This document shows positions 844 to 58,715 of a stretch of 64,000 nt of DNA, in pieces (positions within the stretch are counted from its first letter, which is position 1; each line of letters opens with the position of its first letter). The DNA is taken from IMG/VR virus record IMGVR_UViG_3300029911_000006; one strand, written 5' to 3'. Below the pieces are notes generated by a model, which was given only the letters and a program-made list of their open reading frames with translations, was not told the DNA's origin and searched no databases. Source of the DNA: a virus (taxonomy: Duplodnaviria > Heunggongvirae > Uroviricota > Caudoviricetes). The translations under genes were made by a program, and so were the position numbers.

Positions 844-2131
844 TCGTCAACTCCATGTCCGACATCGCGAACCCTCGTGCGAAGTCCAATGCTTCCTGCC
901 GTGAATCGAAGCGTCTCTCGTCAAAGTTCCCGTTCAACTGCTCCGTCTCCACAGCGAACAAGACCCGAGTGAACATCGGCCCCGGCTTGAAGCCCATGTC
1001 CATCAAATCCTGTCCCATGACCATCGGCACCGGGCGGACAGTTTCCGGCGTCAATGCCCGGAAGCGTTCAACCAGAACCGCACGTGCCATCGTCTCACGC
1101 AAGTCCAAGCCGCCTCTGTCCCTACCCTGAGTCATGTTCACAGTCTGCTCGAACAGGTCAACCCCATGCGACAGGACACCCGGCTTACGAGCGAACCGCT
1201 TGACGGTGGCGTCATCTGCGTTGAGAACTCTATCCAGCTTCTCAGCCACAGCGTTGACGACAACATCCCGCTCTCCTACCGACAGCTTCAGGCTGTTGAC
1301 AGCCATCGCCATTTGCAGGTCACTGGAACAATCGGCAAAGAACATCGCCAGACCCAGCAACGGGTCTTTGGTCGGGAACTTGGTGAACCGCTCCAGCATC
1401 GAAGCGAAGTTCAGAGAGGACGTGAAGCCCAGTCCGAATACCTGAGTCAACAACCCAGTAGAAGCCAAGAGAGTCAGACCCTGAACCGCGAACGGCCCAA
1501 CGACCAGCTTCTTCAGTTCAGCCGCAACTCGCTCCATGCTAACCATCCGTACCCGGCTGTCATTTCGCACTATCGCGTCGAACGTACCTTGCTCCACAGT
1601 GAAGCCCAACCGGGCGACGAAGGAAGCCGCACGCAACATGCGTGCCGGGTCTTCCATGAAACGGTCATCCGGGTTGCCTATGCAGCGAACCAAACCGGCT
1701 CTCAGGTCTGACAAACCGCCAACGTGGTCAACCACGAAGTTGGACGGGTCGCCAGCGGGGCCAAACGGTATCAGGGACATCAGCCCGTTCATGGTGAAAT
1801 CGCGGCGAAGAACATCCTCTTCAGCCGACTCGCTGTAGCGAACTTCGTCCGGGCGGCGTCCATCGGTGTACTCGCCATCTGCACGGTACGTCGCAACCTC
1901 TATCTGGTGACCGTCCACTATGACCACGACGACGCCGAACTTGGCACCGACTGGAGTGGTTTTCTCAAACAGAGGCTGAACCTGCTCCGGGCGTGCGTTG
2001 GTCGAAACGTCGAAGTCCTTGGGGGTTTTTCCCAACACTAAATCTCGTACACAACCCCCCACGAGGTTTCCCTCATACCCTGCTCTACGTAAGGTATTCA
2101 ACACTATACTGGCTGCGGCACTCATATCCAT
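833..2131 (-). CDS. cca: CCA-adding tRNA nucleotidyltransferase / poly(A) polymerase-family head domain
   Basis: Motifs GGCVRD...DFD and RRDFTMN are typical of the class II CCA-adding enzyme head domain. Start ATG (MDMSAAAS) lies 6 nt after a TATACT -10 box, so it is leaderless. Confidence 0.85.
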   Translation of the reverse strand: MDMSAAASIVLNTLRRAGYEGNLVGGCVRDLVLGKTPKDFDVSTNARPEQVQPLFEKTTPVGAKFGVVVVIVDGHQIEVATYRADGEYTDGRRPDEVRYSESAEEDVLRRDFTMNGLMSLIPFGPAGDPSNFVVDHVGGLSDLRAGLVRCIGNPDDRFMEDPARMLRAASFVARLGFTVEQGTFDAIVRNDSRVRMVSMERVAAELKKLVVGPFAVQGLTLLASTGLLTQVFGLGFTSSLNFASMLERFTKFPTKDPLLGLAMFFADCSSDLQMAMAVNSLKLSVGERDVVVNAVAEKLDRVLNADDATVKRFARKPGVLSHGVDLFEQTVNMTQGRDRGGLDLRETMARAVLVERFRALTPETVRPVPMVMGQDLMDMGFKPGPMFTRVLFAVETEQLNGNFDERRFDSRQEALDFARGFAMSDMELTNGR

Positions 2132-2186
2132 ACACACAGTATACCGGAGTCTCAGGTATTCTGGGTACAAATTTGCCAAAATAATT
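2131..2186 (-). promoter_or_regulatory. conserved phage promoter, copy 1 (UP element, -35-like CCCAGA, -10 TATACT); leaderless start of cca
   Basis: Minus strand reads TATTTTGGCAAATTTGTACCCAGAATACCTGAGACTCCGGTATACTGTGTGTATG. Confidence 0.6.
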
Positions 2187-2314
2187 CGACTTTGCTCCTC
2201 TTTAGTAGAGGAGGCAAAAAATGGACTACTTTAACCGAAGGCAGCGTAAATCTCGGACTTGGCCTTCTCCATCCGGGCGAGTTCTTCTGGTATCGGGGGA
2301 ATAATCATGGGGCC

Positions 2315-2530
2315 TCAGCGATTGTTCATGGGGTGAAGGTGGAGGTCGCCATGCTTGTCCACGCGGGTGTAGACCGGCGATACATCGGTGGGGTTGAAGA
2401 ACTTGAGGTAGTGGAGTACATCCACCTTCATGACCTGAACCGTCCACGTATCATCCTGAACGAGGGCGTCCATCATGACCCGGCCCTTGTGGGCCTTGAC
2501 GAGAGCACGAACTTGCTTGACGGTTTCCAT
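2315..2530 (-). CDS. hypothetical protein (71 aa)
   Basis: ORF METVKQVRALVK... Its ATG overlaps the TAA of the upstream small gene (TAATG). Confidence 0.45.
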   Translation of the reverse strand: METVKQVRALVKAHKGRVMMDALVQDDTWTVQVMKVDVLHYLKFFNPTDVSPVYTRVDKHGDLHLHPMNNR

Positions 2531-2700
2531 TACCAGTACATCCTCTTGGCCTGAATTGCGACCAGCTTCTGCCAGTGCCGTTCAAGGGTCTCGCGACGGT
2601 ACTTATCGCGTAGACGCATAAACAGGCAGTAAAAGGGGAAGTCCTTATCGAACCGACGACGCGGTTCACAGTCGTAGTAACCAATCGTAACGGTAGCCAT
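2530..2700 (-). CDS. small hypothetical protein (56 aa, MATVTIGYYDCEPRRRFDKDFPFY...)
   Basis: Hand-translated; below the ORF-track size cutoff. TAATG overlaps at both ends. The track ORF 2451..2684 in another frame looks spurious (R/G/S-rich). Confidence 0.4.
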   Translation of the reverse strand: MATVTIGYYDCEPRRRFDKDFPFYCLFMRLRDKYRRETLERHWQKLVAIQAKRMYW

Positions 2701-2894
2701 TAGCGTGCCCTCCGGCTGCGGAGACCCGCGACGTACATGAGGGTCTTATACCGTTCCTTGGCCTCGTCACGGACGGGCTCAGGCTTCGGCTGGTGGGTGC
2801 CGCACAAGTTAGACCCGTCGAGGGCCTGATTCTTGCACGGACGTGTCCGGTAGAAGTTCATTCCGGGTACCCGTACTTGGTGGGAGCATCGCAT
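2700..2894 (-). CDS. small Cys-rich protein (64 aa, MRCSHQ...CKNQ...CGTHQ)
   Basis: ATG sits 6 nt after the TATACT of promoter copy 2 (leaderless). The track ORF extends upstream through a TTG. Confidence 0.5.
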   Translation of the reverse strand: MRCSHQVRVPGMNFYRTRPCKNQALDGSNLCGTHQPKPEPVRDEAKERYKTLMYVAGLRSRRAR

Positions 2895-2950
2895 ACCCAC
2901 AGTATACCGGAGCAACCGCCGTTCTGAACACTATTTTTGGGTATTTTTTG
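2895..2950 (-). promoter_or_regulatory. conserved phage promoter, copy 2
   Basis: Minus strand reads AAAAATACCCAAAAATAGTGTTCAGAACGGCGGTTGCTCCGGTATACTGTGGGTATG. Confidence 0.65.
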
Positions 2951-3125
2951 TCTCGCCGAGGGCCTTGAATCCCAAGAACACACAGGCGTAGGAGAGGATG
3001 GAGATGAGGGTAAAGTTCAGGTCGTCACCGGGCATCGGGTGCTTCAGCATCTCGTACATGGCGACAGCACCAAAGGATGACCCTGCTATAGCCAGCAGGA
3101 CGGCGTAGAGGGCATAGGGTTTCAT
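2931..3125 (-). CDS. small membrane protein (64 aa, one or two TM helices)
   Basis: Hydrophobic ORF MKPYALYAVLLAIAGSSFGAV.... A GC hairpin immediately precedes its ATG. Confidence 0.5.
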   Translation of the reverse strand: MKPYALYAVLLAIAGSSFGAVAMYEMLKHPMPGDDLNFTLISILSYACVFLGFKALGETKNTQK

Positions 3126-3130
3126 GTGAG

Positions 3131-3157
3131 GGGCGAGGGGCGTCTCCGCCCCTCCCT
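3131..3157 (-). terminator. GC-rich hairpin (GAGGGGCG-tctc-CGCCCCTC) without a U-tract, between a stop codon and the next ATG
   Basis: Perfect 8-bp G/C stem seen directly in the sequence. It could be an attenuator, a U-less terminator or a processing site. Confidence 0.35.
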
Positions 3158-3162
3158 TTCGC

Positions 3163-3510
3163 TTAGAAGCTGTAGTCGTGGTACTCGTTGCGTTGGCCGA
3201 TGTGGAGTGAGGTACCGTTGCCCTTGCTCTCTCCGGTCTTAATCCAGAGACCGTTCTTCCGCTTGGTGTAGACTTCTTTCGCGGCCTTGGGGTTGGGGGT
3301 GAAGGCGTAGTCCTGTGACTCGCTCATGCCGTTGCTGTCGGTGCGTTCTGCTGAGTCCTGCTGGATGACAATCTTGGTGGGCGACTTGACCTCCACGATG
3401 GTTGCGGCGTGCCGGTCGGTGTACATGTTGATGGTGGCTCCCATGCCTACCTCAGGAACCTTGTTCACCGACTCGGACATTCTGCTGTAGATGTTGCCGA
3501 ATACACGCAT
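3163..3510 (-). CDS. hypothetical protein (115 aa)
   Basis: ATG (MRVFGNIY) is preceded by GGAGGAAACAACC and by promoter copy 3. Confidence 0.55.
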   Translation of the reverse strand: MRVFGNIYSRMSESVNKVPEVGMGATINMYTDRHAATIVEVKSPTKIVIQQDSAERTDSNGMSESQDYAFTPNPKAAKEVYTKRKNGLWIKTGESKGNGTSLHIGQRNEYHDYSF

Positions 3511-3524: not shown

Positions 3525-3575
3525 ACAGACAGTATACCGAACCCCACACGAAACTGGACAGAAAATAATTACATG
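3525..3575 (-). promoter_or_regulatory. conserved phage promoter, copy 3 (with a Shine-Dalgarno-bearing leader)
   Basis: Minus strand reads AATTATTTTCTGTCCAGTTTCGTGTGGGGTTCGGTATACTGTCTGTGGAGGAAACAACCAATG. Confidence 0.6.
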
Positions 3576-5907: not shown

Positions 5908-7398
5908 CTACTTGCTGTCGAACTCGATGAGGTACTTGATGTTGGACTGCGAGGTACGGTAGACAATCTGCTCGTCGTTCTGGACGCCAGAGACACCAGC
6001 CTTCGCCCAGCAAGAGTCGAAGCCATTCTGACGGCAGTACGAAGCTGCACGGCTGTCGCCATGACCACGGGGAGTGTACGGCTTGCCCATGGCAACGTCG
6101 GCCCGGAACATGTAGCAGTTGCTGTCCCGGCTGCTGCTCCCACCACCCCAGTAGCCGAAGCTGTAGTTCAGCGACTTCGTGCTCTGGTTGGAGAAGTACA
6201 CACCGTTGTCGTACATCGCACCAGTGGTCTGTGCGGTCGAAAGCTGCGTCGGAAGTACGAAGCCACGCTTCAGGATGGAGAGGATGTTGAACACGCGGGT
6301 ACCGTGCCAGAGTTCGCGGATGTTGCCAACCTTCTTACCATCGGCGTCGAAGGCGGAAATCATGTGAGGAATCGTGACCGCGTACACCCGGACAGGCTTC
6401 AGGTGAGAGCAGGAGTGACCCCGGTTGACGGTGGCATAGAACTCAGACTCGATGCTCTTCCAGATGTCCTTGTCGTCCACCAGAGCAAGCTTGCACTCGA
6501 ACAGTGCCTTGCGTGCGATGACAACCTCATCCTTATCGCCACCCTTGGCAGCATCGGCGAGACGCTGTTCGGCGAGTTGCACCGAAGTCTCAAGCTGGTC
6601 AAGCAGCGAAGTCTGAGCGGCGATGTTGATGAAATCGGTGTGCCATCCCTGACGGCGAGTGCCTACGTCCTGCGGCACGAGGCGGAGGTACGTGGAGAGA
6701 AGACCACCACCCGCAGCGTACTTGGCGTTCTCGGTGTCACGCTTCTGCACGTAGGGGAGCATCTTGTCGAGAATCGACCGGGCTTCCGTGATGGCTTCAA
6801 GCTGAACTACGCCGAGAGAGGTCTTCACGAGACCAGAGTCATCAATGTAGACGCCACCCTTATCCTTACCACCAGTCGCCAGATTCAACTCATGACGGTT
6901 GGTGTCGGCCAGCTTCTTCACGAGAGCGGCAGTGAAGGCACATGCACCAGCAATGTCGGTCACCGCTGCTGCCTTGACGGCGACAGAGGTCATTTTGTTG
7001 TCGTAGGAAGAAGAGGAACCAAATGCTTTGGCGGCTGGCTCAGGGGCACCGACAGTCTTGACTTCGGTGTAGGCTGGCTTGATTTTGCCATCCTTGTCAG
7101 CCTTCTGCGGCTTGAGGTTGCCGTACTTGTCGGTCTGTGTCTTGTCGCGAATCTTCGCGTCGAGGTCGGACTGGCTGTCGAGCAACATGCTCTCGCACTT
7201 CTCGATGGGTGCTCCGACCCGGCCCCAAGTGGTGCGGATGTAACCCGTCTCCACCTTGCCGCCACGGCCCGACTGGGTGATTGGCCCGTCGTAAATCTCT
7301 ACCCGGTAGAACTTGTTGTTGTTCTGAATCGGGTCAACGGCGATAAACATCCTCGTCGCGATTACTTTAGTGGTCGTAGCTGTCAGTAGCGTTGCCAT
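5908..7398 (-). CDS. poly(ADP-ribose) polymerase (PARP) homolog with a WGR domain
   Basis: WGR motif FYRVEIYDG...TTWGRVG. Catalytic motifs LWHGTRVFNILSIL (H-G-T), GVYFSNQSTKSLNYS (Tyr) and NIKYLIEFD (Glu) align with the PARP1 H-Y-E signature. The start is leaderless, after promoter copy 4. Confidence 0.85.
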   Translation of the reverse strand: MATLLTATTTKVIATRMFIAVDPIQNNNKFYRVEIYDGPITQSGRGGKVETGYIRTTWGRVGAPIEKCESMLLDSQSDLDAKIRDKTQTDKYGNLKPQKADKDGKIKPAYTEVKTVGAPEPAAKAFGSSSSYDNKMTSVAVKAAAVTDIAGACAFTAALVKKLADTNRHELNLATGGKDKGGVYIDDSGLVKTSLGVVQLEAITEARSILDKMLPYVQKRDTENAKYAAGGGLLSTYLRLVPQDVGTRRQGWHTDFINIAAQTSLLDQLETSVQLAEQRLADAAKGGDKDEVVIARKALFECKLALVDDKDIWKSIESEFYATVNRGHSCSHLKPVRVYAVTIPHMISAFDADGKKVGNIRELWHGTRVFNILSILKRGFVLPTQLSTAQTTGAMYDNGVYFSNQSTKSLNYSFGYWGGGSSSRDSNCYMFRADVAMGKPYTPRGHGDSRAASYCRQNGFDSCWAKAGVSGVQNDEQIVYRTSQSNIKYLIEFDSK

Positions 7399-7399
7399 G

Positions 7400-7460
7400 C
7401 ATGTAGTATACAGAGCTATGGGGTGTTTTGAACAGCTATTTTTGAGAAATTTTTGTGTTT
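7400..7460 (-). promoter_or_regulatory. conserved phage promoter, copy 4 (drives PARP; leaderless)
   Basis: Minus strand reads AAAAATTTCTCAAAAATAGCTGTTCAAAACACCCCATAGCTCTGTATACTACATGCATG. Confidence 0.65.
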
Positions 7461-8335: not shown

Positions 8336-8392
8336 CCAGTGAGGGACACCAGCCTCCAGCCCCGAACAACTATTTTTAGAAAATTTTTACCC
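8336..8392 (-). promoter_or_regulatory. promoter-motif variant (UP element and GTTGTTCGGGG box present, no TATACT)
   Basis: Minus strand reads AAAAATTTTCTAAAAATAGTTGTTCGGGGCTGGAGG... Confidence 0.3.
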
Positions 8393-8401
8393 CTGTGTTT
8401 T

Positions 8402-50240: not shown

Positions 50241-50252
50241 ACTAGCTAATAC

Positions 50253-50335: not shown

Positions 50336-50341
50336 CAAAGG

Positions 50342-50539: not shown

Positions 50540-50587
50540 ATGTGTTCTCCTGTCAGTTGAATTCGTTTATAATGCGTGGATGAAACA

Positions 50588-50809
50588 TCAGGATGCCTTG
50601 ACGAAGGTCCCGCCATCCAGAGCCTTGCGAATGTACCGCATGAGAGTAATGGCCTTCTCGGTTGAGTTCAAGGTGGCTCCGCCAATGTCTTCGAGCGAGA
50701 CGGGAAAGGCATATTCGACGCCATCCACCGTTACGTTGTAAAAGGCGTTACCCGTCCTATAGAACGAAAACCTTGCGGTGTTGTCCTTCACAATCTTCTT
50801 GATGTCCAT
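50588..50809 (-). CDS. hypothetical protein (73 aa from MDIKK)
   Basis: AGGAAGGATG Shine-Dalgarno. Confidence 0.45.
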   Translation of the reverse strand: MDIKKIVKDNTARFSFYRTGNAFYNVTVDGVEYAFPVSLEDIGGATLNSTEKAITLMRYIRKALDGGTFVKAS

Positions 50810-50885
50810 ATGCTCATCCTTCCTTTCAGTTTGACTACTCAGCCATGCAGCTTTGTCTAGACCTATGCCTCGGTCTGAGTGGCTT

Positions 50886-51104
50886 CTAACGATGTCCCTT
50901 ATCTCCGACACTCATGACTCCTTCAACGTACTGCTCTTGCAGATACCTGTCTACTTCTTGGTCAATCTCAGCCATGGACTTCATGATGAACGCTTCGGTT
51001 TCGAGGTCACCACGGTTATGGGCTTCAGCCGCCTTGTCCATCATGCTCGACTTTACGTAGGCCCGGATTTCTTCGAAGAGAGAGATTTTGTTTGCGTCTG
51101 CCAT
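50886..51104 (-). CDS. hypothetical protein (72 aa)
   Basis: Track ORF. Confidence 0.45.
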   Translation of the reverse strand: MADANKISLFEEIRAYVKSSMMDKAAEAHNRGDLETEAFIMKSMAEIDQEVDRYLQEQYVEGVMSVGDKGHR

Positions 51105-51157
51105 ACTCTCTAATACGGAGACTCAGGGGAGTCTTACGACTCCCCCTCGTGATTGCC

Positions 51158-51727
51158 CTAGTGGTCGAGTTCTACGTTCCAGTAAGCCCAAGATGCCTTT
51201 TCAGCGTACAACCACTGCTGCCACTCAGTCCACTCAGGCCGAATCTGCTTGATGTGGAGTTTGAAATTGAACTTCGGGTCGTCAACCTTCGGTACGAACG
51301 GCTGACGGAGCAGCGGCATACGAGCCTGTTCAGGCGTCATGCCAGCCTTCGCCTTGTTGCAGCGAGAGCAAGCGGCTACGACGTTAGTCCAGACAGTGAT
51401 ACCACCCTGACACCGGGGCTTGACGTGCTCCACCTGAAACTCCTGAGTGGAGACGTGCTTACCGCAGTATTGGCAAGTACCCTCGTCACGCATGTAGATG
51501 TTGCGACGAGAACACGGAACAGCAAGGCGACGACGCTTGTGCCAAGCGTTCTTTACCTGAATGACACGGGGCATACCCATCTCGAAAGAAGGGCTGCGAA
51601 GCATCCGCCCACCCTCATCTTCCTTGACGATGTTAGCGCGGTCTTCCCAGTACAGCTTGACCGCATTCTTCCAACTCATGAAGCCAACCGGCTTCCAGTT
51701 TATGTCCAAAACGAGAGTGTCATTCAT
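51158..51727 (-). CDS. HNH endonuclease (McrA-like)
   Basis: CQYCGK...EHVKPRCQGG...NVVAACSRCNKAK. Confidence 0.7.
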   Translation of the reverse strand: MNDTLVLDINWKPVGFMSWKNAVKLYWEDRANIVKEDEGGRMLRSPSFEMGMPRVIQVKNAWHKRRRLAVPCSRRNIYMRDEGTCQYCGKHVSTQEFQVEHVKPRCQGGITVWTNVVAACSRCNKAKAGMTPEQARMPLLRQPFVPKVDDPKFNFKLHIKQIRPEWTEWQQWLYAEKASWAYWNVELDH

Positions 51728-51820
51728 AGAACGCTCCTATCACCTAATGCTGTTTCATGTTGTCCCCCTTGCACGGGTGGGTTCTCGCGAACCCTTCTTC
51801 GGATGGTGTTGCAACTACAG

Positions 51821-52252
51821 TCAAACTCTTTCGACGGAAATCAGGTTCCCGCCCTCGAAGACGGCATTGTACTCAAACCACTCCGCCTCCGGTACTTCAA
51901 TCTCATTGCCCTCGTCATCCCTCGTGGTGGTCTTGCCTTCCGCGAAGTTGACGAAGAATAGCATCCCGCTATTTGCATCGCCGTAAAAGTTCAAGGTGCC
52001 GGTAAAGTCTACGAGGCCCCAGCAGATGTGAATCCGGGTCATGCATCCGACCAGCTTCATCAAGCCTTCGGCGTTCGGGTCGGAACGGTCTTCAACGTCG
52101 TAGTCCGATAGCACCAACTGGCCTTGCTCAGTAATCTGGTAGTCGTCAAAGAACCCAAGGTCAACCAAGCTCTTCGTCTGGAACTCTATACCAGAGGGGT
52201 CGGGCAATCCCGGTAGTGGGTACTCGCAACGTATTTTATCATACATACCCAT
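51821..52252 (-). CDS. hypothetical protein (143 aa)
   Basis: Track ORF. Confidence 0.5.
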   Translation of the reverse strand: MGMYDKIRCEYPLPGLPDPSGIEFQTKSLVDLGFFDDYQITEQGQLVLSDYDVEDRSDPNAEGLMKLVGCMTRIHICWGLVDFTGTLNFYGDANSGMLFFVNFAEGKTTTRDDEGNEIEVPEAEWFEYNAVFEGGNLISVERV

Positions 52253-52258
52253 AAGTTT

Positions 52259-52334
52259 TTGGTGCAGACGGTGGGAGTTGAACCCACAACCATTCGATTA
52301 AGAGTCGAGTGCTCTGCCAGTTGAGCTACGTCTG
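52259..52334 (-). tRNA. tRNA-Lys (anticodon CUU)
   Basis: Acceptor GCAGACG/CGTCTGC, D GCTC/GAGC, anticodon loop CTCTTAA, T-arm GTGGG-TTCAACT-CCCAC, CCA. Confidence 0.85.
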
Positions 52335-52352
52335 CGTCTCCTACTATAGGGT

Positions 52353-52730
52353 CTAAAAGCTTTCAATTCGTTCAACCACGTCGCTGTCCCAAATGCATCC
52401 ACTAGCACAGTCCCACGTGTAATACCACATCATAGACAGCCGGTGCCGCCGCTGGTACGGGGCGATGATGATGCCCTGATACTTGGCTGCTACCTTCTTC
52501 CATTCAATACCCGTTGCACTGGGAAACTGTAAGGAAGTAAATCGGTAATTCTCAGCAAAATCTTCTAGCTGGGACTCGGTGGAGATGTGGAGGATGTTGG
52601 CGTCAGGCTTGAGTACGACCCTATGCACCAGCTTACCGATACCAAAATCCTCCGCAGCACACCAACTGGCCCAGTCATGTTCGCCCTGCACCGAAACCCA
52701 AAGCGGGTTTATACTGCCAGCCTTCCCCAT
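52353..52730 (-). CDS. hypothetical protein (125 aa)
   Basis: Track ORF. Confidence 0.5.
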   Translation of the reverse strand: MGKAGSINPLWVSVQGEHDWASWCAAEDFGIGKLVHRVVLKPDANILHISTESQLEDFAENYRFTSLQFPSATGIEWKKVAAKYQGIIIAPYQRRHRLSMMWYYTWDCASGCIWDSDVVERIESF

Positions 52731-52798
52731 CTAGTTGCTTCCGCGACCATACATTCAGGAGAGGTTGATTGCTGTGGTGCAGAAGAATCATGACATCC

Positions 52799-53647
52799 TC
52801 AGAAATCGTTGTCGAGTGGAGGAAGAACTTCCGCTCTCGCCAACCTCTCTTGTCTCCAAGAGTTTATCATGCCCTCAAGTGCTCTTACAACAGAATTCAT
52901 GTCGCACTTGTAGAACCCCGCACTCGCCGTCGAGTTCACTTCGAGTACACTACACTCATCGCCGGTTATACTTACATCAAGTACATACGTGGCCGAGATG
53001 GGTGTCTCTCCAAGCTCCGCCATCCTCTGTGCGAACTGCATCATCGGATAGAAGAATGCGTTGGTGGAGTCTATCCTCGCGTACATTACCTCGCCGAAAC
53101 TACGGTACACACTTCCCGTTACAACCCTGCCGTCCACGACGAAGAATCTTGCCTCGTGGTCAATCGGCTTCGGTGGTGCGAACATAACCGGGGTGTCTCC
53201 TGTGATGGAGCAGTACCCTGTCTTTGCCAGTTCAACGATACGGTCACGCCAAGGCACCATGTCCTCCGGCGTCATCAGACCACCGTTGAATACCTTGGTG
53301 TCATGCACCGGGCGGACGAACATCGGCTCCGTGAAGTCCATCTCACTGAACTTGCAGTACGTCGCGTCGTGGTTGAAGAAGTTGCGACCGAACCGTACTC
53401 CGTGCTGCTGCATGTCGAACTCAGGGCCTTGAAACGCACCGGGCTTCCAGCCACGCTCAGTAGCGATACGGGCCAACCCCATCGAGCCCCAGACCATCAC
53501 ATCCTCATCCGGGTCGAAGTCTACCTCTGGCTGCAAATGCTCCCGGACGCTGACGATGGTGTACTTGCTGTCGTTCGCATCCAATGCGTCGAGCAGCCCT
53601 TTGAAACCGAACTCGTTGAACAACCCTGCCTGTACTACGTGCTGCAT
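52799..53647 (-). CDS. hypothetical protein, tentatively ATP-grasp-like (282 aa)
   Basis: RFFVVDGRVVTGSVYR...VLDVSITGDECSVLEVN blocks resemble an ATP-grasp C-terminal domain, like 34650..35438. Confidence 0.35.
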   Translation of the reverse strand: MQHVVQAGLFNEFGFKGLLDALDANDSKYTIVSVREHLQPEVDFDPDEDVMVWGSMGLARIATERGWKPGAFQGPEFDMQQHGVRFGRNFFNHDATYCKFSEMDFTEPMFVRPVHDTKVFNGGLMTPEDMVPWRDRIVELAKTGYCSITGDTPVMFAPPKPIDHEARFFVVDGRVVTGSVYRSFGEVMYARIDSTNAFFYPMMQFAQRMAELGETPISATYVLDVSITGDECSVLEVNSTASAGFYKCDMNSVVRALEGMINSWRQERLARAEVLPPLDNDF

Positions 53648-53814
53648 ATCTTCCCTTCCAACTCTTGAAACCTTTCCCACTTCGGGCCGTTGTAAATGAG
53701 ATGGTAGCCACCCCACATGCCCAGAACTTGAAGTCCGTAATACTCTAAGGTCTCTTCCTTGCTGAGACCCGGCAGCGGATACGTTGGGGTCTCCCGTACG
53801 TATTCTTCACTCAT
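53635..53814 (-). CDS. small protein
   Basis: Track ORF. GAGG Shine-Dalgarno. Confidence 0.4.
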   Translation of the reverse strand: MSEEYVRETPTYPLPGLSKEETLEYYGLQVLGMWGGYHLIYNGPKWERFQELEGKICST

Positions 53815-54046
53815 CAGTCTTATCCTCGGAAGCGTCTTCCGTCCATTGCACTGAAGCTCGTTCCACATTCAACGATAGCCCGTCGAGAAACAACATTACC
53901 TCGCTCCTTAGTTCCGCAGAGTCGAAGCGGTCGTACTTGTCCGAGACATCCAGCGTTAGGGTAAACTTTCTCATAGTGATAGATACGTCACTTTCTTCCT
54001 TCAAACATGCAAAAAGTGAGATTGCTCTCACTCCTTGGTCGAACAA
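53807..54046 (-). CDS. hypothetical acidic protein (79 aa)
   Basis: Track ORF. Confidence 0.45.
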   Translation of the reverse strand: MFDQGVRAISLFACLKEESDVSITMRKFTLTLDVSDKYDRFDSAELRSEVMLFLDGLSLNVERASVQWTEDASEDKTDE

Positions 54047-54050
54047 AACT

Positions 54051-54125
54051 TGGCTCCCAGTGAGGGACTCGAACCCCCAACCATACGGTTAACAGCCGTA
54101 AGCTCTGCCATTGAGCTAACTGGGA
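54051..54125 (-). tRNA. tRNA-Asn (anticodon GUU)
   Basis: Acceptor TCCCAGT/ACTGGGA, D GCTC/GAGC, anticodon stem TACGG/CCGTA with loop CTGTTAA, T-arm GGGGG-TTCGAGT-CCCTC, CCA. Confidence 0.85.
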
Positions 54126-54134
54126 ACATCTCTT

Positions 54135-54198
54135 TGCGGGGCAGACATTGAACCTGCGACCTCTCGGTTAGCCTCCGACATCTAGGCACCCGCAATCC
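54135..54198 (-). other. tRNA-like fragment (T-arm-like GCAGG-TTCAATG-TCTGC plus acceptor-like TTGCGGG/CCCGCAA); about 62 nt, too short for a tRNA
   Basis: Hand-folded. Probably a degenerate tRNA remnant. Confidence 0.3.
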
Positions 54199-54379
54199 TT
54201 TTGACCCACTTCTTTTCCTTGTCGTTCCATACTCTACGCTTAGAGTACCAACCGGAACGGAAGTGCATCACTATTACTGTCATCCCCCAGTGGCGTGTAC
54301 CCAGCCATCCGATGAGGGTAAGAAACAGTCCGTCGATGAAGTCTACTACATCCTCGGGTTGACGTAACTGTCTCAACAT
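54182..54379 (-). CDS. small protein (65 aa)
   Basis: Track ORF. Confidence 0.4.
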   Translation of the reverse strand: MLRQLRQPEDVVDFIDGLFLTLIGWLGTRHWGMTVIVMHFRSGWYSKRRVWNDKEKKWVKRIAGA

Positions 54380-54421
54380 ATCTTGGTTGCGGAGGTTGGG
54401 TTGGATGTCTTACCACATTTT

Positions 54422-54498
54422 TGGTTGGGAGAGCAGGGATCGAACCTGCAAACCTCTCGGGTCAGAACCGAGTGTTCTACCAATTGAACTATCTCCCA
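54422..54498 (-). tRNA. tRNA-Gln (anticodon CUG)
   Basis: U1-A72 acceptor TGGGAGA/TCTCCCA, anticodon stem CTCGG/CCGAG with loop TTCTGAC, T-arm TGCAG-GTTCGATCC, CCA. Confidence 0.8.
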
Positions 54499-54505
54499 AT
54501 AACTT

Positions 54506-54582
54506 TGGTACCTCGGGTCGGATTTGAACCGACGATTTCCTCCTTATGAGAGAGGCGTCTTAGACCGCTGGACGACCGAGGC
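54506..54582 (-). tRNA. tRNA-Met (anticodon CAU; elongator or Ile2-type)
   Basis: Anticodon stem CCTCT/GGAGG with loop CTCATAA, T-arm GTCGG-TTCAAAT-CCGAC, CCA. Confidence 0.8.
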
Positions 54583-54583
54583 A

Positions 54584-55258
54584 CTACATTACTTGGGCTA
54601 AGTCGGTTCCACCTTTAGAGTTCAGACGGACATTGCGTTCCTTAGCCCATGCACTTACAACCTTGGATAACTTCCTACCCCTGCCCTTACCCATGTTCAT
54701 CCCCCTATACGTGGGGGTCAGTGAGTGACAATTAGGACAAAGCAACCTACAATTACTATAGCTGTTATTGTAGCAATCCCCATCTACATGTTCGAGTTCA
54801 ATTGGAACTGTGAGGGATTTGGGGTTCACTTTACTCCACCCACAGTCCTCGCATTTCCTTCCCCGCTCAATTATCAGATAACCTTTGGCTGATCGTTCCG
54901 ATGGAACTATTACTCCTGACTTCCATTTTACTAGTAGTACAGCCCGTCTTCTATCCCACGACTGCTTCGACTGTTTCCCTCCCTCCCTCGAAGCACATTT
55001 CCTAGAGCAGTGCCTCTGAGACAGCTTACCGTGGGTAAACGAACCGCCACATGTAATACACGTTTTATCATGACAACAGGAAGGCTTATTGAGGAGCCCC
55101 GATGTATTGCGTCTATCAACAAGTTCTTCCTTACTTAGGGGGTAATCACGTAACCATAAACTGGCAGAACCCTTGGCTACTCCCAGTCGAAGCGCAATTT
55201 CTTTCAATGAAAGCCGATTCTGTACCCTCAGTGTAATTGCTTCATTCTGTTTTTCCAT
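54584..55258 (-). CDS. HNH homing endonuclease with an N-terminal HTH domain
   Basis: IELEHVDGDCYNNSYSNCRLLCPNCHS. It is embedded between tRNA genes. Confidence 0.7.
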   Translation of the reverse strand: MEKQNEAITLRVQNRLSLKEIALRLGVAKGSASLWLRDYPLSKEELVDRRNTSGLLNKPSCCHDKTCITCGGSFTHGKLSQRHCSRKCASREGGKQSKQSWDRRRAVLLVKWKSGVIVPSERSAKGYLIIERGRKCEDCGWSKVNPKSLTVPIELEHVDGDCYNNSYSNCRLLCPNCHSLTPTYRGMNMGKGRGRKLSKVVSAWAKERNVRLNSKGGTDLAQVM

Positions 55259-55340
55259 TAATCTTCGCATTTGAACCCCCTATAAGAGGTATGCGATAGT
55301 CGAAAAACCAGCATGACTAACCTACTGTAGGTACAAATTA

Positions 55341-55416
55341 TGGTGGGGCCGTTCGGCATCGAACCGAAATCTCACCGCTTAAAAGGCGGGACTCTAGCCA
55401 TTTGAGTTACAACCCC
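55341..55416 (-). tRNA. tRNA-Lys (anticodon UUU)
   Basis: Acceptor GGGGTTG/CGGCCCC (two G-U pairs), D ACTC/GAGT, anticodon CCGC-CTTTTAA-GCGG, T-arm TTCGG-TTCGATG-CCGAA, CCA. Confidence 0.75.
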
Positions 55417-55457
55417 GAATTTGGGCAAACGTTTCATATAGTTCCTTTGCAAAACTT

Positions 55458-55534
55458 TGGTGCGCCGGGGTGGATTCGAACCACCGTCATCTCGGGTAAG
55501 GGCCGAGTATAATAATCCGCTATACGACCGACGC
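55458..55534 (-). tRNA. tRNA with a non-canonical anticodon loop CCCUUAC (C at position 33; anticodon possibly CUU)
   Basis: Good acceptor GCGTCGG/CCGGCGC, D GTAT/ATAC and T-arm GGTGG-TTCGAAT-CCACC with CCA. Anticodon stem CTCGG/CCGAG. Confidence 0.55.
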
Positions 55535-55554
55535 AAAACTGGTACATCTAAACT

Positions 55555-55641
55555 TGGTGCGTCCGGAGGGATTCGAACCCCCGTTGGGAATCTCTCCCGC
55601 TGATTAAGAGTCAGGTGCATAAGCCACTCTGCCACGAACGC
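55555..55641 (-). tRNA. tRNA with anticodon CUU (Lys) on a class-II body (long variable arm GGGAGAGATTCCC; A73)
   Basis: Acceptor GCGTTCG/CGGACGC, 3-bp D stem (Leu-like), anticodon CTGA-CTCTTAA-TCAG, T-arm GGGGG-TTCGAAT-CCCTC, CCA. Confidence 0.55.
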
Positions 55642-55728
55642 ATATCCCTGTAAGCGGTACAATTGTGCCGGATACAGCTAAAACTAGGCTTTATCGGTAA
55701 CATACTACCGGTATTGCCGACATCAAAC

Positions 55729-55802
55729 TTGGCTCGGTCTCAGGGGGTCGAACCCCGGTTTCTAGGGTCAGAACCTAGCGTCCTACCACTGAACGAAGAC
55801 CG
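55729..55802 (-). tRNA. tRNA-Gln (anticodon CUG), second copy
   Basis: U1-A72 acceptor TCGGTCT/AGACCGA, anticodon stem CTAGG/CCTAG with loop TTCTGAC, T-arm CGGGG-TTCGACC-CCCTG, CCA. Confidence 0.75.
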
Positions 55803-55818
55803 AACATGTGGAACTAAA

Positions 55819-55918
55819 CTGGTGCGGGTGGGGAGATTCTCACGTCCCCGTGGCACCTTACCCTCTGAGCGTCAAGACGTGAGTGTGTCGCGACTCAGAT
55901 AGAGGGCACCTACCCCGC
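55819..55918 (-). ncRNA. about 100-nt tRNA-like or structured RNA ending in ACCA, with non-canonical arms
   Basis: 3' ...CACCCGCACCA pairs with 5' GCGGGGT over 5 bp. Internal hairpins CTGAG..CTCAG and GGGGA..TCCCC. No canonical TpsiC loop. Confidence 0.3.
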
Positions 55919-55935
55919 ATACTGTGCTACTAAAC

Positions 55936-56026
55936 TGGCTCAGGGGGAGGGACTCGAACCCTCAGAGGGAATGGCTACCCGCTTGGTTAACAGCCAAGTA
56001 CGCTGCCAGTTACGTTTTACCCCTGA
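55936..56026 (-). tRNA. tRNA with anticodon GUU (Asn) on a class-II body (18-nt variable arm; G73)
   Basis: Acceptor TCAGGGG/CCCCTGA, 3-bp D stem, anticodon stem CTTGG/CCAAG with loop CTGTTAA, variable CGGGTAGCCATTCCCTCT, T-arm GAGGG-TTCGAGT-CCCTC, CCA. Confidence 0.55.
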
Positions 56027-56263
56027 ACATCTCTGCTACTAAACTTAGGCCGACTCTCTCTTCGGCGTCACACCACTTCAACTAAGACACATGCCTTCTA
56101 CGCTTCTAACGTAGGCTTTCATGTACGTTCATCGCCGAAGCGAAACGCCGGGTAGGTGTCACCCTTCTTGTGCTACTAAACCGGGAGGGCTTGGGATTTC
56201 ACGAACGTTCCACAGACGGGAGCTACCCGCCAGATGTCTATCCGTCCCTCTTAGTCCCTTTCG

Positions 56264-56331
56264 TTCACTTGGCGGGAGTCGAACCCGCATCAGCCGCCAA
56301 CGCGGCTGCTCTACCATTGAGCTACAAGCAA
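56264..56331 (-). pseudogene. defective tRNA-like gene (good D and T arms and acceptor, but anticodon hairpin CAGCCGC-gttg-GCGGCTG with a 4-nt loop; no CCA)
   Basis: Hand-folded. Only about 19 nt separate the D and T arms. Confidence 0.35.
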
Positions 56332-56354
56332 CTAAGGAACCTCAACTCAAACTA

Positions 56355-56429
56355 TGGCTGGCAAGGCCGGATTCGAACCGACACCTTCTCCGGTAACAGC
56401 GGAGCATCATACCATTAGACCACTTGCCA
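56355..56429 (-). tRNA. tRNA with anticodon GUU (Asn-type), imperfect D stem
   Basis: Acceptor TGGCAAG/CTTGCCA, anticodon stem CTCCG/CGGAG with loop CTGTTAC, T-arm GTCGG-TTCGAAT-CCGGC, CCA. Confidence 0.55.
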
Positions 56430-56749
56430 ACAACTCTCACCCGGTGCTCCCGGACAGCGGACTTACTCAGTTCCGGTCGAATGGGTACGATGCCGGAACA
56501 CTGCCTCTGCTGGAGGATTTACACGCATGACCTCCATTGAACTTATCGGGCACTGACTTCTAAAGCTACATCCGGCCAACGCCGCATGGTGACCAACCCT
56601 CTCGTCACATCCCCGGATTACGAGTCCGGTGCTTTGTTCAGACTCATCACGTAGGTTCCAGCCCTCGTGAATCTGTCTAGGTCTAGTCGTGACCAACGGC
56701 TGGAACCACTGGTGCCCGAAACCGAGACGGATGTTCTCGCCTCAAAACT

Positions 56750-56825
56750 TGGTGCCCCCGGTAAGAATCGAACTCACATCCACGACTTAGAAGGTCGGTG
56801 TCCTTGTCCGTTGAACGACGGGGGC
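56750..56825 (-). tRNA. tRNA-Arg (anticodon UCU)
   Basis: Acceptor GCCCCCG/CGGGGGC, D GTTC/GGAC, anticodon stem CGAC/GTCG with loop CTTCTAA, T-arm GTGAG-TTCGATT-CTTAC, CCA. Confidence 0.8.
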
Positions 56826-56888
56826 TGTTATCAGGGATTGAACTCAGATCATAAATGAAAATACTATCTGACTTTAAACCCCTTGAGT

Positions 56889-57533
56889 ATGCAAACTAAA
56901 ACAAAAGTCACTTGCCTAACTTGCCAAGTAGAATTTGAAAAGGCTGAAGCTGAAATCCGTAGATCATCTCCCGGTCGTAACTTCTGCTCACGTTCCTGCT
57001 CAGCCAAACTCCGTCGTGGTCTTCAAAGAAACCCACCAAAACCTCGTACTTGTAAATCCTGCGGGGCTGAGTTTACATGCTCAACATCCCACCGGTCTTA
57101 CACCTTCTGCTCCCCATGTTCTGGAAACAAGGAACATCTACTTACTCCCCACCTTCGGCTACGCAAACGCCACGGGTCTAATGAGTATATCCGAGTAGAC
57201 TTCCGCCTTATGACTCTTGAAGAGGCGATGAATTCACCTTATGTAAAAGGCAAGCACCGTAGCCACATCTATGATTTCGTCAGGCGGTTCAACCGTTCAT
57301 GGAACAAACACCTTCTCAAACTACCTTGCTTGTACTGTGGTTATAGTAAGCACAGTGAACTTGCTCACATCAAAGGCATAAAAACCTTCTCACTTGATTC
57401 TACTCTCGGCGAAATCAACAATGTCAGCAACGTCTTACCTCTGTGTCGTAACTGCCACTGGGAGTTTGATAACGACCTCCTATCGCTTGAAACCATAAAG
57501 TTGGTGCGCCCGAGAGGATTCGAACCTCTGTAG
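56889..57533 (+). CDS. HNH homing endonuclease (plus strand) in an AT-richer island
   Basis: CLYCGYSKHSELAHIKG...NVLPLCRNCHWEFD. Its last about 10 codons read into the 3' end of the tRNA at 57502..57590. Confidence 0.6.
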   Translation: MQTKTKVTCLTCQVEFEKAEAEIRRSSPGRNFCSRSCSAKLRRGLQRNPPKPRTCKSCGAEFTCSTSHRSYTFCSPCSGNKEHLLTPHLRLRKRHGSNEYIRVDFRLMTLEEAMNSPYVKGKHRSHIYDFVRRFNRSWNKHLLKLPCLYCGYSKHSELAHIKGIKTFSLDSTLGEINNVSNVLPLCRNCHWEFDNDLLSLETIKLVRPRGFEPL

Positions 57534-57590
57534 AGAACTCTCGTTCAACAGATTCGTAGTCTGGTGCCTCATCCGCTAGGCTACGGGCGC
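57502..57590 (-). tRNA. tRNA with anticodon ACG (Arg) and an 18-nt variable arm
   Basis: Acceptor GCGCCCG/CGGGCGC, D GCCT/AGGC, anticodon stem CCAGA/TCTGT with loop CTACGAA, variable TGAACGAGAGTTCTCTAC (GAAC/GTTC stem), T-arm AGAGG-TTCGAAT-CCTCT, CCA. Confidence 0.6.
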
Positions 57591-57876
57591 ATATATTTTG
57601 CACATCCTGTTCGTAGCAGGTAAAGGCAAGTACTGTGCCTTGTTCTTAGGATGTGGGCGAGAATGCTGAACTCCCTGTCCACCCCTCCCGGCCTTTCAAC
57701 CGAGAGCATCCTGATTGCTCGGAACCTTTTCCAGTGTCGTCGCGACGACCCACTTGCAAGTGGTGAAGGTATCGAACCTCCTCGGAACCGTCTTGGCTTG
57801 TGCGGCCAGCATTTACTGACATATCCGGGCTATCACGCCCGATGAGGCACATCGCCTCCCCTTTCACACAAAGACT

Positions 57877-57966
57877 TGGTGTACCCGGCAGGACTCGAAC
57901 CTGCATGAGACTTTCGTCAGCCCACCTTCGGAGGGTGGCGGCTAATCCAATTCACACCACGGGTAC
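57877..57966 (-). tRNA. tRNA with anticodon CCG (Arg) and a 17-nt variable arm
   Basis: Acceptor GTACCCG/CGGGTAC, anticodon stem CCACC/GGTGG with loop CTCCGAA, variable GCTGACGAAAGTCTCAT, T-arm GCAGG-TTCGAGT-CCTGC, CCA. Confidence 0.6.
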
Positions 57967-58233
57967 AAAACGACGGTGCTTTGCGAAGCTCCTCACCATT
58001 CCGTGAGGCAGGGTTGGTTACCCGCGTCTTCCGTCTAACTCAAAAGTAAGGTGGGGGTCTTCACTTCCCGAACGTCGTCCGCTACCAGTGTCACAGCCGC
58101 CCTAATACTTCCGGCTACGCCTTTGCCTTACTGATGCTTCTAGCATAGGTTCTGGCGGTTGATTCCCTGTACCAGTTTCCCGGTACCGGTCTTTTATCCC
58201 TTGCGGGTACCGCTACGCCCATGCCAAAACTTT

Positions 58234-58308
58234 TGGGGGGCAATCCGGGAATCGAACCCGAGTAACCGATGCCACAGATCGGCGTTCTGCCACTGAACTA
58301 ATCGCCCC
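58234..58308 (-). tRNA. tRNA-His (anticodon GUG) with a genomically encoded G-1
   Basis: Extra 5' G opposite discriminator C73. Acceptor GGGCGAT/ATTGCCC, anticodon stem CCGAT/ATCGG with loop CTGTGGC, T-arm TCGGG-TTCGATT-CCCGG, CCA. Confidence 0.85.
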
Positions 58309-58332
58309 ACATCTTTTCAAAACTTTGCCTTT

Positions 58333-58408
58333 TGGCGGGGGAGCCGGGATTTGAACCCGGAAAAATGGTTTTGGAGACCATCGGTTTGCCAGTTGAGCCT
58401 ACTCCCCC
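58333..58408 (-). tRNA. tRNA-Trp (anticodon CCA)
   Basis: Acceptor GGGGGAG/CTCCCCC, anticodon stem ATGGT/ACCAT with loop CTCCAAA, T-arm CCGGG-TTCAAAT-CCCGG, CCA. Confidence 0.8.
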
Positions 58409-58417
58409 CAATTAGTT

Positions 58418-58455
58418 GTTTCAAATCAATTGTCAAAGATCGCTTTTGAGCCTGA
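58418..58455 (-). promoter_or_regulatory. sigma70-type promoter (TTGACA-N17-TAATTG) immediately upstream of tRNA-Trp
   Basis: Minus strand reads CTTTGACAATTGATTTGAAACAACTAATTGGGGGGAG. Confidence 0.4.
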
Positions 58456-58460
58456 GCCCT

Positions 58461-58492
58461 ACAACGAAAAACCCTAGCCGCTTTGGCTAGGG
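58461..58492 (-). terminator. intrinsic terminator (CCCTAGCC-aaagc-GGCTAGGG followed by TTTTTCG)
   Basis: 8-bp perfect stem followed by a U-tract on the minus strand. It isolates upstream transcription from the tRNA array. Confidence 0.65.
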
Positions 58493-58526
58493 TCTGTAAT
58501 TCTAATCTCGGTTGGTGCTTAGGTGA

Positions 58527-58628
58527 TTTTCACCCGACCATGAGATAGACACAGACCCGTGCTGCGGCGATTATGCTGCTGCCACATGCCCCGCTTCGAA
58601 TTGGTCTGTTTTAACGTCATGGTAGTTT
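58527..58628 (-). CDS. possible micro-ORF (33 aa) downstream of promoter copy 14
   Basis: AAGGAAACTACC-ATG Shine-Dalgarno. It ends just before the terminator. It could instead be a leader. Confidence 0.25.
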
Positions 58629-58654
58629 CCTTGTGCTGCTGTTTTCTGCTTCTC

Positions 58655-58715
58655 TTACATAATACCTGATAGTTCGGAAATTGAAACAACTATTTTTGAT
58701 TTATTTGAAAAATCT
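58655..58715 (-). promoter_or_regulatory. conserved promoter, copy 14 (variant: -10 TATTAT)
   Basis: Minus strand reads CAAAAATAGTTGTTTCAATTTCCGAACTATCAGGTATTATGTAAGAG. Confidence 0.5.

Follow-up and report, generated by a model that had tools for sequence, protein, structure and literature searches.

A family of promoter-like elements was identified in a 64,000-nt stretch of DNA from a tailed phage of the Caudoviricetes (IMG/VR virus record IMGVR_UViG_3300029911_000006; this whole stretch is called the window below). Twelve solid and two variant copies of one layout were found, every one on the minus strand, and eight of these have a start codon exactly 6 nt past a TATACT hexamer. The copies are probably strong promoters of the sigma-70 type (primary sigma), likely read by the host RNA polymerase soon after infection, and about half of them would give leaderless mRNAs. 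The window has 54.2% GC and its minus strand holds 122 of the 123 genes called by a crude codon-usage gene model. The full genome is probably larger than 300 kb, with the window only a part of it.

Occurrence and anatomy of the promoter family

A search with CCGGTATACT at a maximum of one mismatch produced 12 matches compared to 1.8 expected from shuffled sequences, and 10 of the 12 were on the minus strand. A 52-nt weight matrix trained on nine copies returned 12 minus-strand sites at 14 to 71 bits and one more at 1.6 bits (30456), while the top site on the plus strand reached only -4 bits. Copies outside the training set were found again by the matrix at 7405, 9689 (21.7 bits), 58659 (14.3 bits) and 30456, and the highest score was that of the copy at 23353. 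The TATACT hexamer alone was present 19 times on the minus strand and four times on the plus strand. An ATG followed exactly 6 nt later at eight of the 19 minus-strand sites, with every other offset occurring twice at most, and at none of the four plus-strand sites (binomial chance of the excess approximately 1e-11 by our estimate). A first-pass annotation of the window had listed 16 positions for the motif; sequence of this kind was found at all of them and always on the gene strand, but the copy at 8336 is decayed and the one at 7728 is doubtful, as its box-like sequence is shifted by 4 nt and A-tracts are absent.

The copies were aligned on the hexamer, which was numbered -12 to -7. From about -55 to -37 the consensus has phased A-tracts, roughly AAAAATTCCAAAAT(T/A)AG, followed by a 10-bp box at -36 to -27 which reads TGTTCAGAAC in most copies (7-9 in the window), with variants such as TACCCAGAAT before the CCA gene and TACCCAAAAA before that for DUF2958. 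A stretch of ten unconstrained bases separates the box from a YCSG block at -16 to -13, which runs directly into TATACT. The two conserved 10-mers with 10 nt between them correspond to the 16-nt spacer that had been given between two hexamers. The -10 hexamer is TATACT in 13 copies, a match to TATAAT at five of six positions, and TATTAT in one. Six weakly constrained bases follow, usually ending in T or C, and then a purine, which is the seventh nucleotide after the hexamer in all 13 window copies and in all 19 copies aligned from related phages (32/32 together). The base just before this purine was a pyrimidine in 12 of the 13 window copies. Bacterial RNA polymerase prefers to start at a purine preceded by a pyrimidine. 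Information content peaked at -54 to -46, -44 to -39, -36 to -28 and -16 to -7 and was almost nil in the spacer (-27 to -17) and the discriminator (-5 to -3). Fixed contact positions beside a free spacer and discriminator therefore look like the footprint of protein contacts on a promoter and not like a duplicated repeat.

Two details of the first-pass description did not hold. The block before the -10 had been called an invariant CCGG, but TCGG, TCTG, TCCG, CCCG, CGCG and GGGG are present as well; only the G at -13 is invariant, a G at -14 is common, and the TG of an extended -10 (TGn) is absent from the family, with G-13 standing instead. For the -35 element TTCAGA had been proposed, at a spacing of 16 nt. 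This register, which a generic sigma-70 scan picked as well, gives TTCAGA or TTCAAA in the window (4/6 compared to TTGACA), but it fails in related phages, where the box is TAGCCAAAAC or TGTCYAAAT and the register gives GCCAAA. With an 18-nt spacer TGTTCA and TAGCCA are obtained, which match TTGACA at three to four positions and share T..CA, so that the register is ambiguous. Two other interpretations of the box were rejected. An operator-like palindrome (GTTCAGAAC, that is GTTC-N-GAAC) is broken by the variants GTTCAAAAC, GTTCGAAAA and CCCAGAAT, and a promoter of an extracytoplasmic function sigma factor, with the AAC at -29 to -27 as its -35, does not fit the 14-nt spacing and the TATACT -10.

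Eight copies have the A of an ATG as the seventh base past the hexamer (2131, 2894, 7398, 9682, 20843, 27041, 30449 and 37735), and their genes encode the CCA enzyme, PARP, ligase, Ku, a DUF2958 protein and three unknown proteins. All eight starts leave no room for a Shine-Dalgarno (SD) sequence, and the six intervening bases are GTGTGT, GTGGGT, ACAGAC or similar. The ATGs at 20843 (ligase) and 30449 (DUF2958) are the first start codons of their open reading frames (ORFs). For PARP the ORF could be extended upstream by 58 codons; however, the 1158 homologues cover at most 90% of this long form, and the nine closest aligned homologues begin with or contain MAT... exactly level with ATG 7398, the 58-aa extension being unconserved. 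Homologue P0039, which was called with a short extension, translates its own promoter, its ...YTVC-MAT corresponding to TATACT-N6-ATG. Orthologues of Ku likewise begin at the ATG equivalent to 37735.

The earlier claim that half of the copies are leaderless with the ATG 6-7 nt downstream can be sharpened, since the distance is exactly 6 nt in eight copies and 8 nt at 23353. A leaderless GTG had also been proposed. The GTG at +1 of the 9340 copy is probably not a start, and this copy was read as having a 55-nt leader because a strong SD and ATG 9284 follow; a GTG does stand 7 nt after the hexamer at 25434. For the remaining copies leaders of 40-55 nt had been described, but the measured lengths were 14 nt (3531), 17 nt (41729, rIIA), 32 nt (58659) and 55 nt (9346). 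The assignment of cca, PARP, ligase, Ku and rIIA as the genes behind the motif was confirmed by Pfam, PHROGs and tblastn.

Conservation in related phages

The relatives that protein searches found for the window form a clade of metagenomic contigs of jumbo phages, the longest of 405 kb, from soil-type samples. They are referred to here by their L numbers and keep the gene order rIIA-rIIB-Ku...MVP...ligase. Amino acid identity between the window and the relatives was 42-65% for Ku and 64-72% for PARP, and the GC content of the relatives was 43-57%. A total of 29 unique promoter sites of the same build were found in six related phages, 18 of them with TATACT-N6-ATG. In these sites the A-tracts are followed by a box placed as in the window, an unconstrained spacer, ..GG or ..CG, TATACT, six bases and a purine. 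The box itself read TAGCCAAAAC in L003, L007 and L012, TGTCYAAAT in L037, and TACCCAAAAT, TGGCTAAAAA or TGTCCAAAAT in L002 and L038, and only T-36, C-32, A-31, A-29, G-13 and the hexamer were constant across the clade. The motif, its strand bias, its spacing, the associated reading frames and its conservation in the clade are thus directly observed.

Orthologous genes mostly kept their leaderless or SD-led arrangement. The Ku gene has the leaderless arrangement in the window, L002, L003, L005/L007 and L012, with the orthologues reading GGTATACT-N6-ATG, and the same arrangement was found for the PARP and CCA orthologues of L037 and L038 (TATACT-N6-ATG at CCA), for the L003 ligase orthologue (TATACT-ATAGGT-ATG) and for the L003 DUF2958 orthologue (TATACT-ATGAGT-ATGAAACTT). 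In contrast to these leaderless genes, rIIA has an SD beginning at +1 in each of the five phages compared (window, L002, L003, L005 and L012), and the four orthologues read TATACT-NNNNGC-AGGAGA... The L007 orthologue of ORF 26454-27041 has the same promoter with an 11-nt SD leader (GGGAGAGAAGA ATG), while the window copy has none, and therefore the leader state can switch. L007 also carries an orthologue of ORF 25151-25426 with 42% identity. In the more distant L011 (Ku identity 42-44%) the promoter family was absent and Ku was SD-led, as was the Ku of L013, another more distant relative.

The family also bears on gene calling in this clade, where it corrects start codons: PARP was called 16 codons short in its JGI record, and the L003 ligase and L038 CCA genes were likewise called at other codons.

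Some relatives encode small Sigma70_r4 proteins near Ku, at 9293-9820 (175 aa) and 11276-11938 (220 aa) in L002 and at 17795-18055 (86 aa) in L011; the 220-aa protein shows clear sequence of regions 4.1-4.2. These region-4 proteins are candidate phage transcription factors. The 405-kb L037 contig has a 2.6-kb direct duplication near its end (4948/7572 and 5882/8506), which holds the PARP gene (467- and 486-aa copies) and two promoters and could be a real tandem duplication or an artefact of assembly or of a terminal repeat. Both L037 and L038 also encode an Asp/Asn-type tRNA synthetase.

Reading of the promoters and comparison with known systems

The transcription start, the polymerase and its sigma factor, the timing and the translation mode were inferred from the features above. 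Under the reading favoured here, the phased A-tracts (about -55 to -39) would be an UP element contacted by the alpha C-terminal domains, the 10-bp box (-36 to -27) would fill the -35 region, and G-13 (often GG at -14/-13) together with TATACT would serve as an extended -10. Transcription would begin at the purine 7 nt past the hexamer. In eight of the 14 copies this purine would be the A of the start codon and the mRNA would therefore lack a 5' leader and an SD, so that translation would have to begin with ribosome and initiator tRNA binding directly at the AUG of the 5' end. In the other copies the transcript would open with the SD itself (14-17-nt leaders) or carry a leader of 32-55 nt. The transcription units headed in this way would be those of rIIA/rIIB, Ku, ligase, CCA, PARP, probably the tRNA cluster and many small ORFs. 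This content, with rIIA/B, Ku, ligase, CCA, PARP, tRNAs, RNA-repair genes and small ORFs, suggests an early class. The information profile, a spacer of about 17 nt, the purine register, the conservation in the clade and the PARP N-termini agree with the first-pass proposal of promoters with sigma-70 architecture, about half of which would start on the A of the ATG.

Some results weigh against recognition by the host polymerase alone. The -35 region matches TTGACA poorly and its 4/6 register is lost in the relatives. The box is more uniform within a genome than a -35 hexamer requires, and it varies from one related phage to another; both features would be accounted for if a phage protein read the box. 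Small sigma-70 region 4 proteins are encoded next to Ku in L002 and L011. A scan with a generic sigma-70 consensus was also not enriched over shuffles.

A second reading, which is possible although clearly less probable, keeps the same DNA elements, start sites and leaderless mRNAs but requires a phage-encoded specificity factor and places the promoters in a middle rather than an immediate-early class. The factor may be an activator bound to the -36 to -27 box together with sigma remodelling, as in the MotA/AsiA system of T4, or a sigma-like protein of the phage, made early or delivered with the virion. The combination of a near-consensus -10 with a conserved 10-bp box centred near -31 and unlike TTGACA is consistent with such a factor, as are a box that is nearly identical within a genome and varies between phages beside a fixed -10, and the Sigma70_r4 proteins near Ku. 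The MVP gene has a different element with the more TTGACA-like hexamer CTTGCA, and therefore more than one promoter class is present in the region. However, a Pfam search (E ≤ 1e-3) of the 105 proteins of the 64-kb window gave no domain of a sigma factor, MotA, AsiA or RNA polymerase, and tblastn found no homologue of the L002 region-4 proteins there. The window also mixes the boxes TGTTCAGAAC, TACCCAGAAT and TACCCAAAAA, a variation which a single reader would have to tolerate, and no other candidate early promoter family that could express the factor first was seen in the 64 kb. UP-like A-tracts with a strong -10 are, moreover, generally typical of promoters used by host polymerase alone, such as the early promoters of T4. 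A more far-reaching version is doubtful: the box would be no -35 element but the target of a new phage factor, possibly virion-delivered, that redirects the host polymerase, and the leaderless takeover genes would be translated in a 70S-type manner during shutdown of SD-dependent host expression, in a host that is possibly a member of the Acidobacteriota. If this were true, the phage factor and the leaderless design would together amount to a coupled takeover of transcription and translation in a poorly studied host phylum.

It is unlikely that the promoters are real while the ATG at +1 goes unused, with translation from a downstream codon or mainly from upstream read-through transcripts. Several units closely follow upstream genes, and an intrinsic-terminator consensus scan of the window was not enriched over shuffles; read-through transcripts therefore probably exist. 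The ORF at 2894 also has an alternative ATG at 2861 that the crude codon-score model favours. Against this, the 6-nt spacing is exact in eight window copies and 18 copies of the relatives, no SD lies within reach of the leaderless ATGs, the N-termini of PARP and Ku homologues align with the predicted ATG, and on a read-through transcript the ATG would stand in SD-less promoter sequence and be poorly translated. That the motif is no promoter at all but a dispersed mobile repeat (a miniature inverted-repeat transposable element or a homing-endonuclease-associated sequence) or the binding array of a non-transcriptional protein is very improbable. The many copies of a closely similar stretch of about 55 nt would suit it, as would the HNH endonuclease gene of the window, but the copies have one orientation, stand before gene starts in fixed register to the start codon, vary freely in spacer and discriminator with contact positions fixed, show no flanking inverted repeats or target duplications in the intergenic sequences, and occupy orthologous positions in phages with 42-72% protein identity, including a 43%-GC genome.

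The favoured reading, strong primary-sigma promoters with leaderless starts, resembles the TA-led genes of Deinococcus-Thermus and Actinobacteria, in which TANNNT lies 6-7 nt before the start (first T at -12), no SD is present and the 5'-AUG is recognised. TANNNT at some 12 bp before the start codon serves as the accepted computational mark of leaderless genes (PMC3160421), and in Deinococcus radiodurans a -10 motif 6-7 bp before ORFs, mostly TACACT, is the proven promoter -10 of leaderless mRNAs (PMC12340547). TACACT, the commonest Deinococcus hexamer, is one base from TATACT, and the 6-nt gap of the eight window copies and the 18 copies of the relatives agrees with the spacing of TA-led genes in these studies (PMC3160421, PMC12340547). 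Unlike most Deinococcus motifs, which occur without a -35, the phage -10 is set within a full and uniform promoter of A-tracts, box and G-13; the same promoter also serves SD-led genes. 70S ribosomes bind the 5'-AUG of leaderless mRNAs such as lambda cI, which served as the model in that work (PMC11514452). At lambda PRM-cI, the classic case among phages, transcription likewise begins on the A of the AUG, with 70S binding at the 5'-terminal AUG presumed for the present phage, but PRM is a single regulated promoter of lysogeny, compared to at least eight genes in 64 kb and conservation across a clade. Middle and late transcripts of the Thermus phage phiYS40 are reportedly leaderless (Sevostyanova et al. 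2007).

The early promoters of T4 are also similar, with many near-identical copies before takeover genes including rIIA/rIIB, conservation over about 50 bp, a strong -10 and, near -42 and -52, UP-like A-tracts. As strong sigma-70 promoters they are conserved outside the hexamers too and have A-rich tracts upstream (Wilkens and Ruger; Miller et al. 2003). They differ in their SD leaders, in a -35 nearer to TTGACA and in TGn in place of G-13, and the timing in the present phage is judged from its genes only. T4 middle promoters combine a MotA box at -30 with a sigma-70 -10 and depend on sigma appropriation by AsiA/MotA. A good -10 with a conserved non-TTGACA box near -30 is shared with them; however, the boxes TGTTCAGAAC and TAGCCAAAAC bear no relation to the sequence read by MotA, (a/t)(a/t)TGCTT(t/c)a, and UP-like A-tracts are present in the phage. 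A promoter for a phage RNA polymerase (T7-like or phiKZ/AR9-type) was rejected, as it would call for a single contiguous conserved block across the start site, while the motif is bi- or tripartite with a variable spacer and no polymerase domain was found in the window. No leaderless transcripts occur in phiKZ (PMC8244752), and elsewhere it has been stated that 'phage transcripts ... are often leaderless' (PMC5312081). Promoter families are routine in phage genomes and leaderless phage transcripts are already known; particular to this family are the strict 6-nt rule, one chassis for both leaderless and SD-at-+1 genes, G-13, the atypical box and the conservation in the clade.

The family offers a ready transcription map for an uncultured clade of soil or peat jumbo phages. 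Leaderless expression may, as judged from sequence, be a default for phage takeover genes beyond the Thermus and actinobacterial systems, and a host whose phage expresses takeover genes in this way is therefore predicted to translate 5'-terminal AUGs efficiently. With its small size, the consensus (A-tracts, box, G-TATACT, N6, ATG) is also a candidate cassette for expression in genetically intractable soil bacteria.

Individual copies, database searches and neighbouring genes

The coordinates of the copies, of a decayed copy and of the element before the MVP gene are given in Table 1.

Table 1. Promoter copies and related elements of the window, with predicted start sites, leaders and downstream genes (all on the minus strand; aa, amino acids).
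Copy	Extent	Elements	Predicted start and leader	Downstream gene
P2138	2131-2191 (-)	A-tracts 2168-2191; box TACCCAGAAT 2158-2167; CCGG; TATACT 2138-2143	Leaderless, ATG 2131 at +1	CCA-adding enzyme, 833-2131, 432 aa (Pfam PolyA_pol, 1.2e-34)
P2901	2894-2954 (-)	Box TGTTCAGAAC 2921-2930; -10 2901-2906	Leaderless, ATG 2894 at +1; start less certain	Small ORF 2700-2894, 64 aa; no orthologue recovered
P3531	3510-3584 (-)	Box TGTCCAGTTT; TCGG; -10 3531-3536	+1 G 3524; 14-nt leader GGAGGAAACAACCA with SD (GGAGGA...) at +1; ATG 3510	ORF 3163-3510, 115 aa
P7405	7398-7458 (-)	Box TGTTCAAAAC 7425-7434; TCTG; -10 7405-7410	Leaderless, ATG 7398 at +1	PARP-domain protein, 5908-7398, 496 aa (Pfam PARP, 2.6e-19)
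Decayed copy	8336-8401 (-)	A-tracts and box start AAAAATTTTCTAAAAATAGTTGTTCGGGGC intact; CCTCAC at the -10 position		
P9346	9284-9399 (-)	Box TGTTCAGAAT 9366-9375; CCGG; -10 9346-9351	+1 G 9339; 55-nt leader ending in SD AGGAGAACTC; ATG 9284	ORF 8946-9284, 112 aa
P9689	9682-9742 (-)	Box TGTGCAGAAG; TCCG; -10 9689-9694	Leaderless, ATG 9682 at +1	ORF 9377-9682, 101 aa
P20850	20843-20903 (-)	Box TGTTCAGAAC 20870-20879; CCGG; -10 20850-20855	Leaderless, ATG 20843 at +1	ATP-dependent DNA ligase, 20034-20843, 269 aa (Pfam)
P23353	23344-23406 (-)	Box TGTTCAGAAC; CCGG; -10 23353-23358	+1 A 23346; 2-nt leader (AG); ATG 23344	ORF 23147-23344, 65 aa
P25434 (variant)	25426-25487 (-)	T/A-tract; divergent box CTATGCGTGC; GGGG; TATACT 25434-25439	+1 A 25427; 1-nt leader; GTG 25426	ORF 25151-25426, 91 aa; ATGA overlap with the start of the next gene
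P27048	27041-27101 (-)	Box TGTTCAAAAC; CCCG; -10 27048-27053	Leaderless, ATG 27041 at +1	ORF 26454-27041, 195 aa
P30456	30449-30509 (-)	Box TACCCAAAAA; CGCG; -10 30456-30461	Leaderless, ATG 30449 at +1	30174-30449, 91 aa; DUF2958 by the L003 orthologue (Pfam hit there)
MVP promoter-like element	33284-33375 (-)	A/T-tract; CTTGCA-N15-TAGTAC 33322-33347; outside the family	Leader with SD AAGGAG	MVP gene
P37742	37735-37795 (-)	Box TGTTCGAAAA; CCGG; -10 37742-37747	Leaderless, ATG 37735 at +1	Ku, 36779-37735, 318 aa (Pfam)
P41729	41705-41782 (-)	Box TGTTCAGAAT; CCCG; -10 41729-41734	+1 A 41722; 17-nt leader AGGAGAGAAGACACCCA with SD (AGGAGA...) at +1; ATG 41705	rIIA, 39201-41705, 834 aa, then rIIB (tblastn, PHROGs)
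P58659 (variant)	58620-58712 (-)	A-tracts; box TGTTTCAATT; CAGG; TATTAT 58659-58664	+1 G 58652; 32-nt leader	33-codon ORF 58519-58620; hairpin 58469-58495; 17-tRNA cluster from 58408

The decayed copy precedes an ORF that would begin at TTG 8335. A hairpin with a T-run lies directly upstream of P37742, at about 37800-37835. Upstream of P25434, positions 25427-25653 form an AT-richer stretch of about 230 nt without a convincing ORF; it contains sigma-70-like pairs on the minus strand (TTGTCA-N18-CATATT) and on the plus strand (TTGACC-N17-CATATT and TTTAAA-N17-TATATT), and these pairs overlap.

The proposal that the MVP gene uses a distinct promoter variant was borne out. CTTGCA-N15-TAGTA(C/T/A) is kept before MVP in the window, L002 (16445) and L007 (4637) and occurs nowhere else in those sequences, possibly as the sign of another temporal or sigma class. 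The product of the gene itself (30698-33283, minus strand), confirmed as MVP by Pfam, is 861 aa long and contains Vault_3 and MVP_shoulder domains; its homologues with 39% identity occur in the huge phages LR756501 (735 kb) and LR756500 (462 kb). No promoters of the present family were found in these two genomes, which have 24-32% GC.

Among deposited phage genomes no near relative was found: a megablast search of 8 kb against 50,697 phage records produced no match, and no relatives of Ku were found in IMG/VR. A pattern search of IMG/VR gave a single chance match inside a gene, without A-tracts or ATG, which was rejected. A metagenome scan with the window-type pattern returned only four JGI contigs, 99-100% identical and from the same phage. 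A GTDB scan for CTAGCCAAAM-N13-GGTATACT gave 19 single matches, approximately the chance number, with no phage contigs and no host signal; one of them was a tRNA gene and three were the same locus in related Chloroflexi. At this locus the Chloroflexi metagenome-assembled genomes L016, L017 and L028 share CTAGCCAAAC-N13-GGTATACT-gtttac-ATAAGAA..., which has the appearance of a conserved host promoter built in a similar way.

The Tunturiibacter phage Tunturi_5 was the only cultured phage with the clade-specific 500-aa protein (29% identity) and also gave the best E-value for the CCA enzyme. It is a 309-kb jumbo myovirus of a tundra-soil acidobacterium (PMC11924767), and these matches hint, weakly, at an acidobacterial host for the present phage. 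Tunturi_5 (L008, PP885688, 95047-136639) has a family of its own, with a T/A-tract, CAGTAATCC, about 17 nt, GG-GTATTAG, 5-6 nt and ATG, as at positions 1410, 3623, 14500 and 30374 of this locus. The gene strand has 11 occurrences of GTATTA and the opposite strand one, and four copies end exactly at the annotated coding sequence starts 1423, 3635, 14512 and 30386. The words 'promoter' and 'transcription' are absent from the description of this phage (PMC11924767). Its analogous GGTATTAG-N5-6-ATG family makes the cultured Tunturi_5 an experimental system for the idea of leaderless takeover genes.

Homologues of the PARP protein (5908-7398) numbered more than 1100, many of them on contigs of 325-454 kb. 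A Rfam scan limited the known RNA families of the window to tRNAs. The tRNA cluster (49323-58408, minus strand) comprises 17 genes, for Arg (five), Lys (four), Asn (three), Gln (two), Met, His and Trp, with one undetermined, and a further weak Rfam match lies at 50256-50335. The spacers between the tRNA genes are 80-470 nt long and several carry the word GTTTAGTAGCAC; the tRNA genes often follow ...ATGT or ...ATAT. RNA-repair and tRNA-related proteins identified with Pfam in the window were Tpt1/KptA RNA 2'-phosphotransferase, RNA ligase, RlaP nucleotidyltransferase and the CCA-adding enzyme. The window also encodes a Peptidase_M24 (methionine-aminopeptidase-like) protein and two R2K ATP-grasp proteins.

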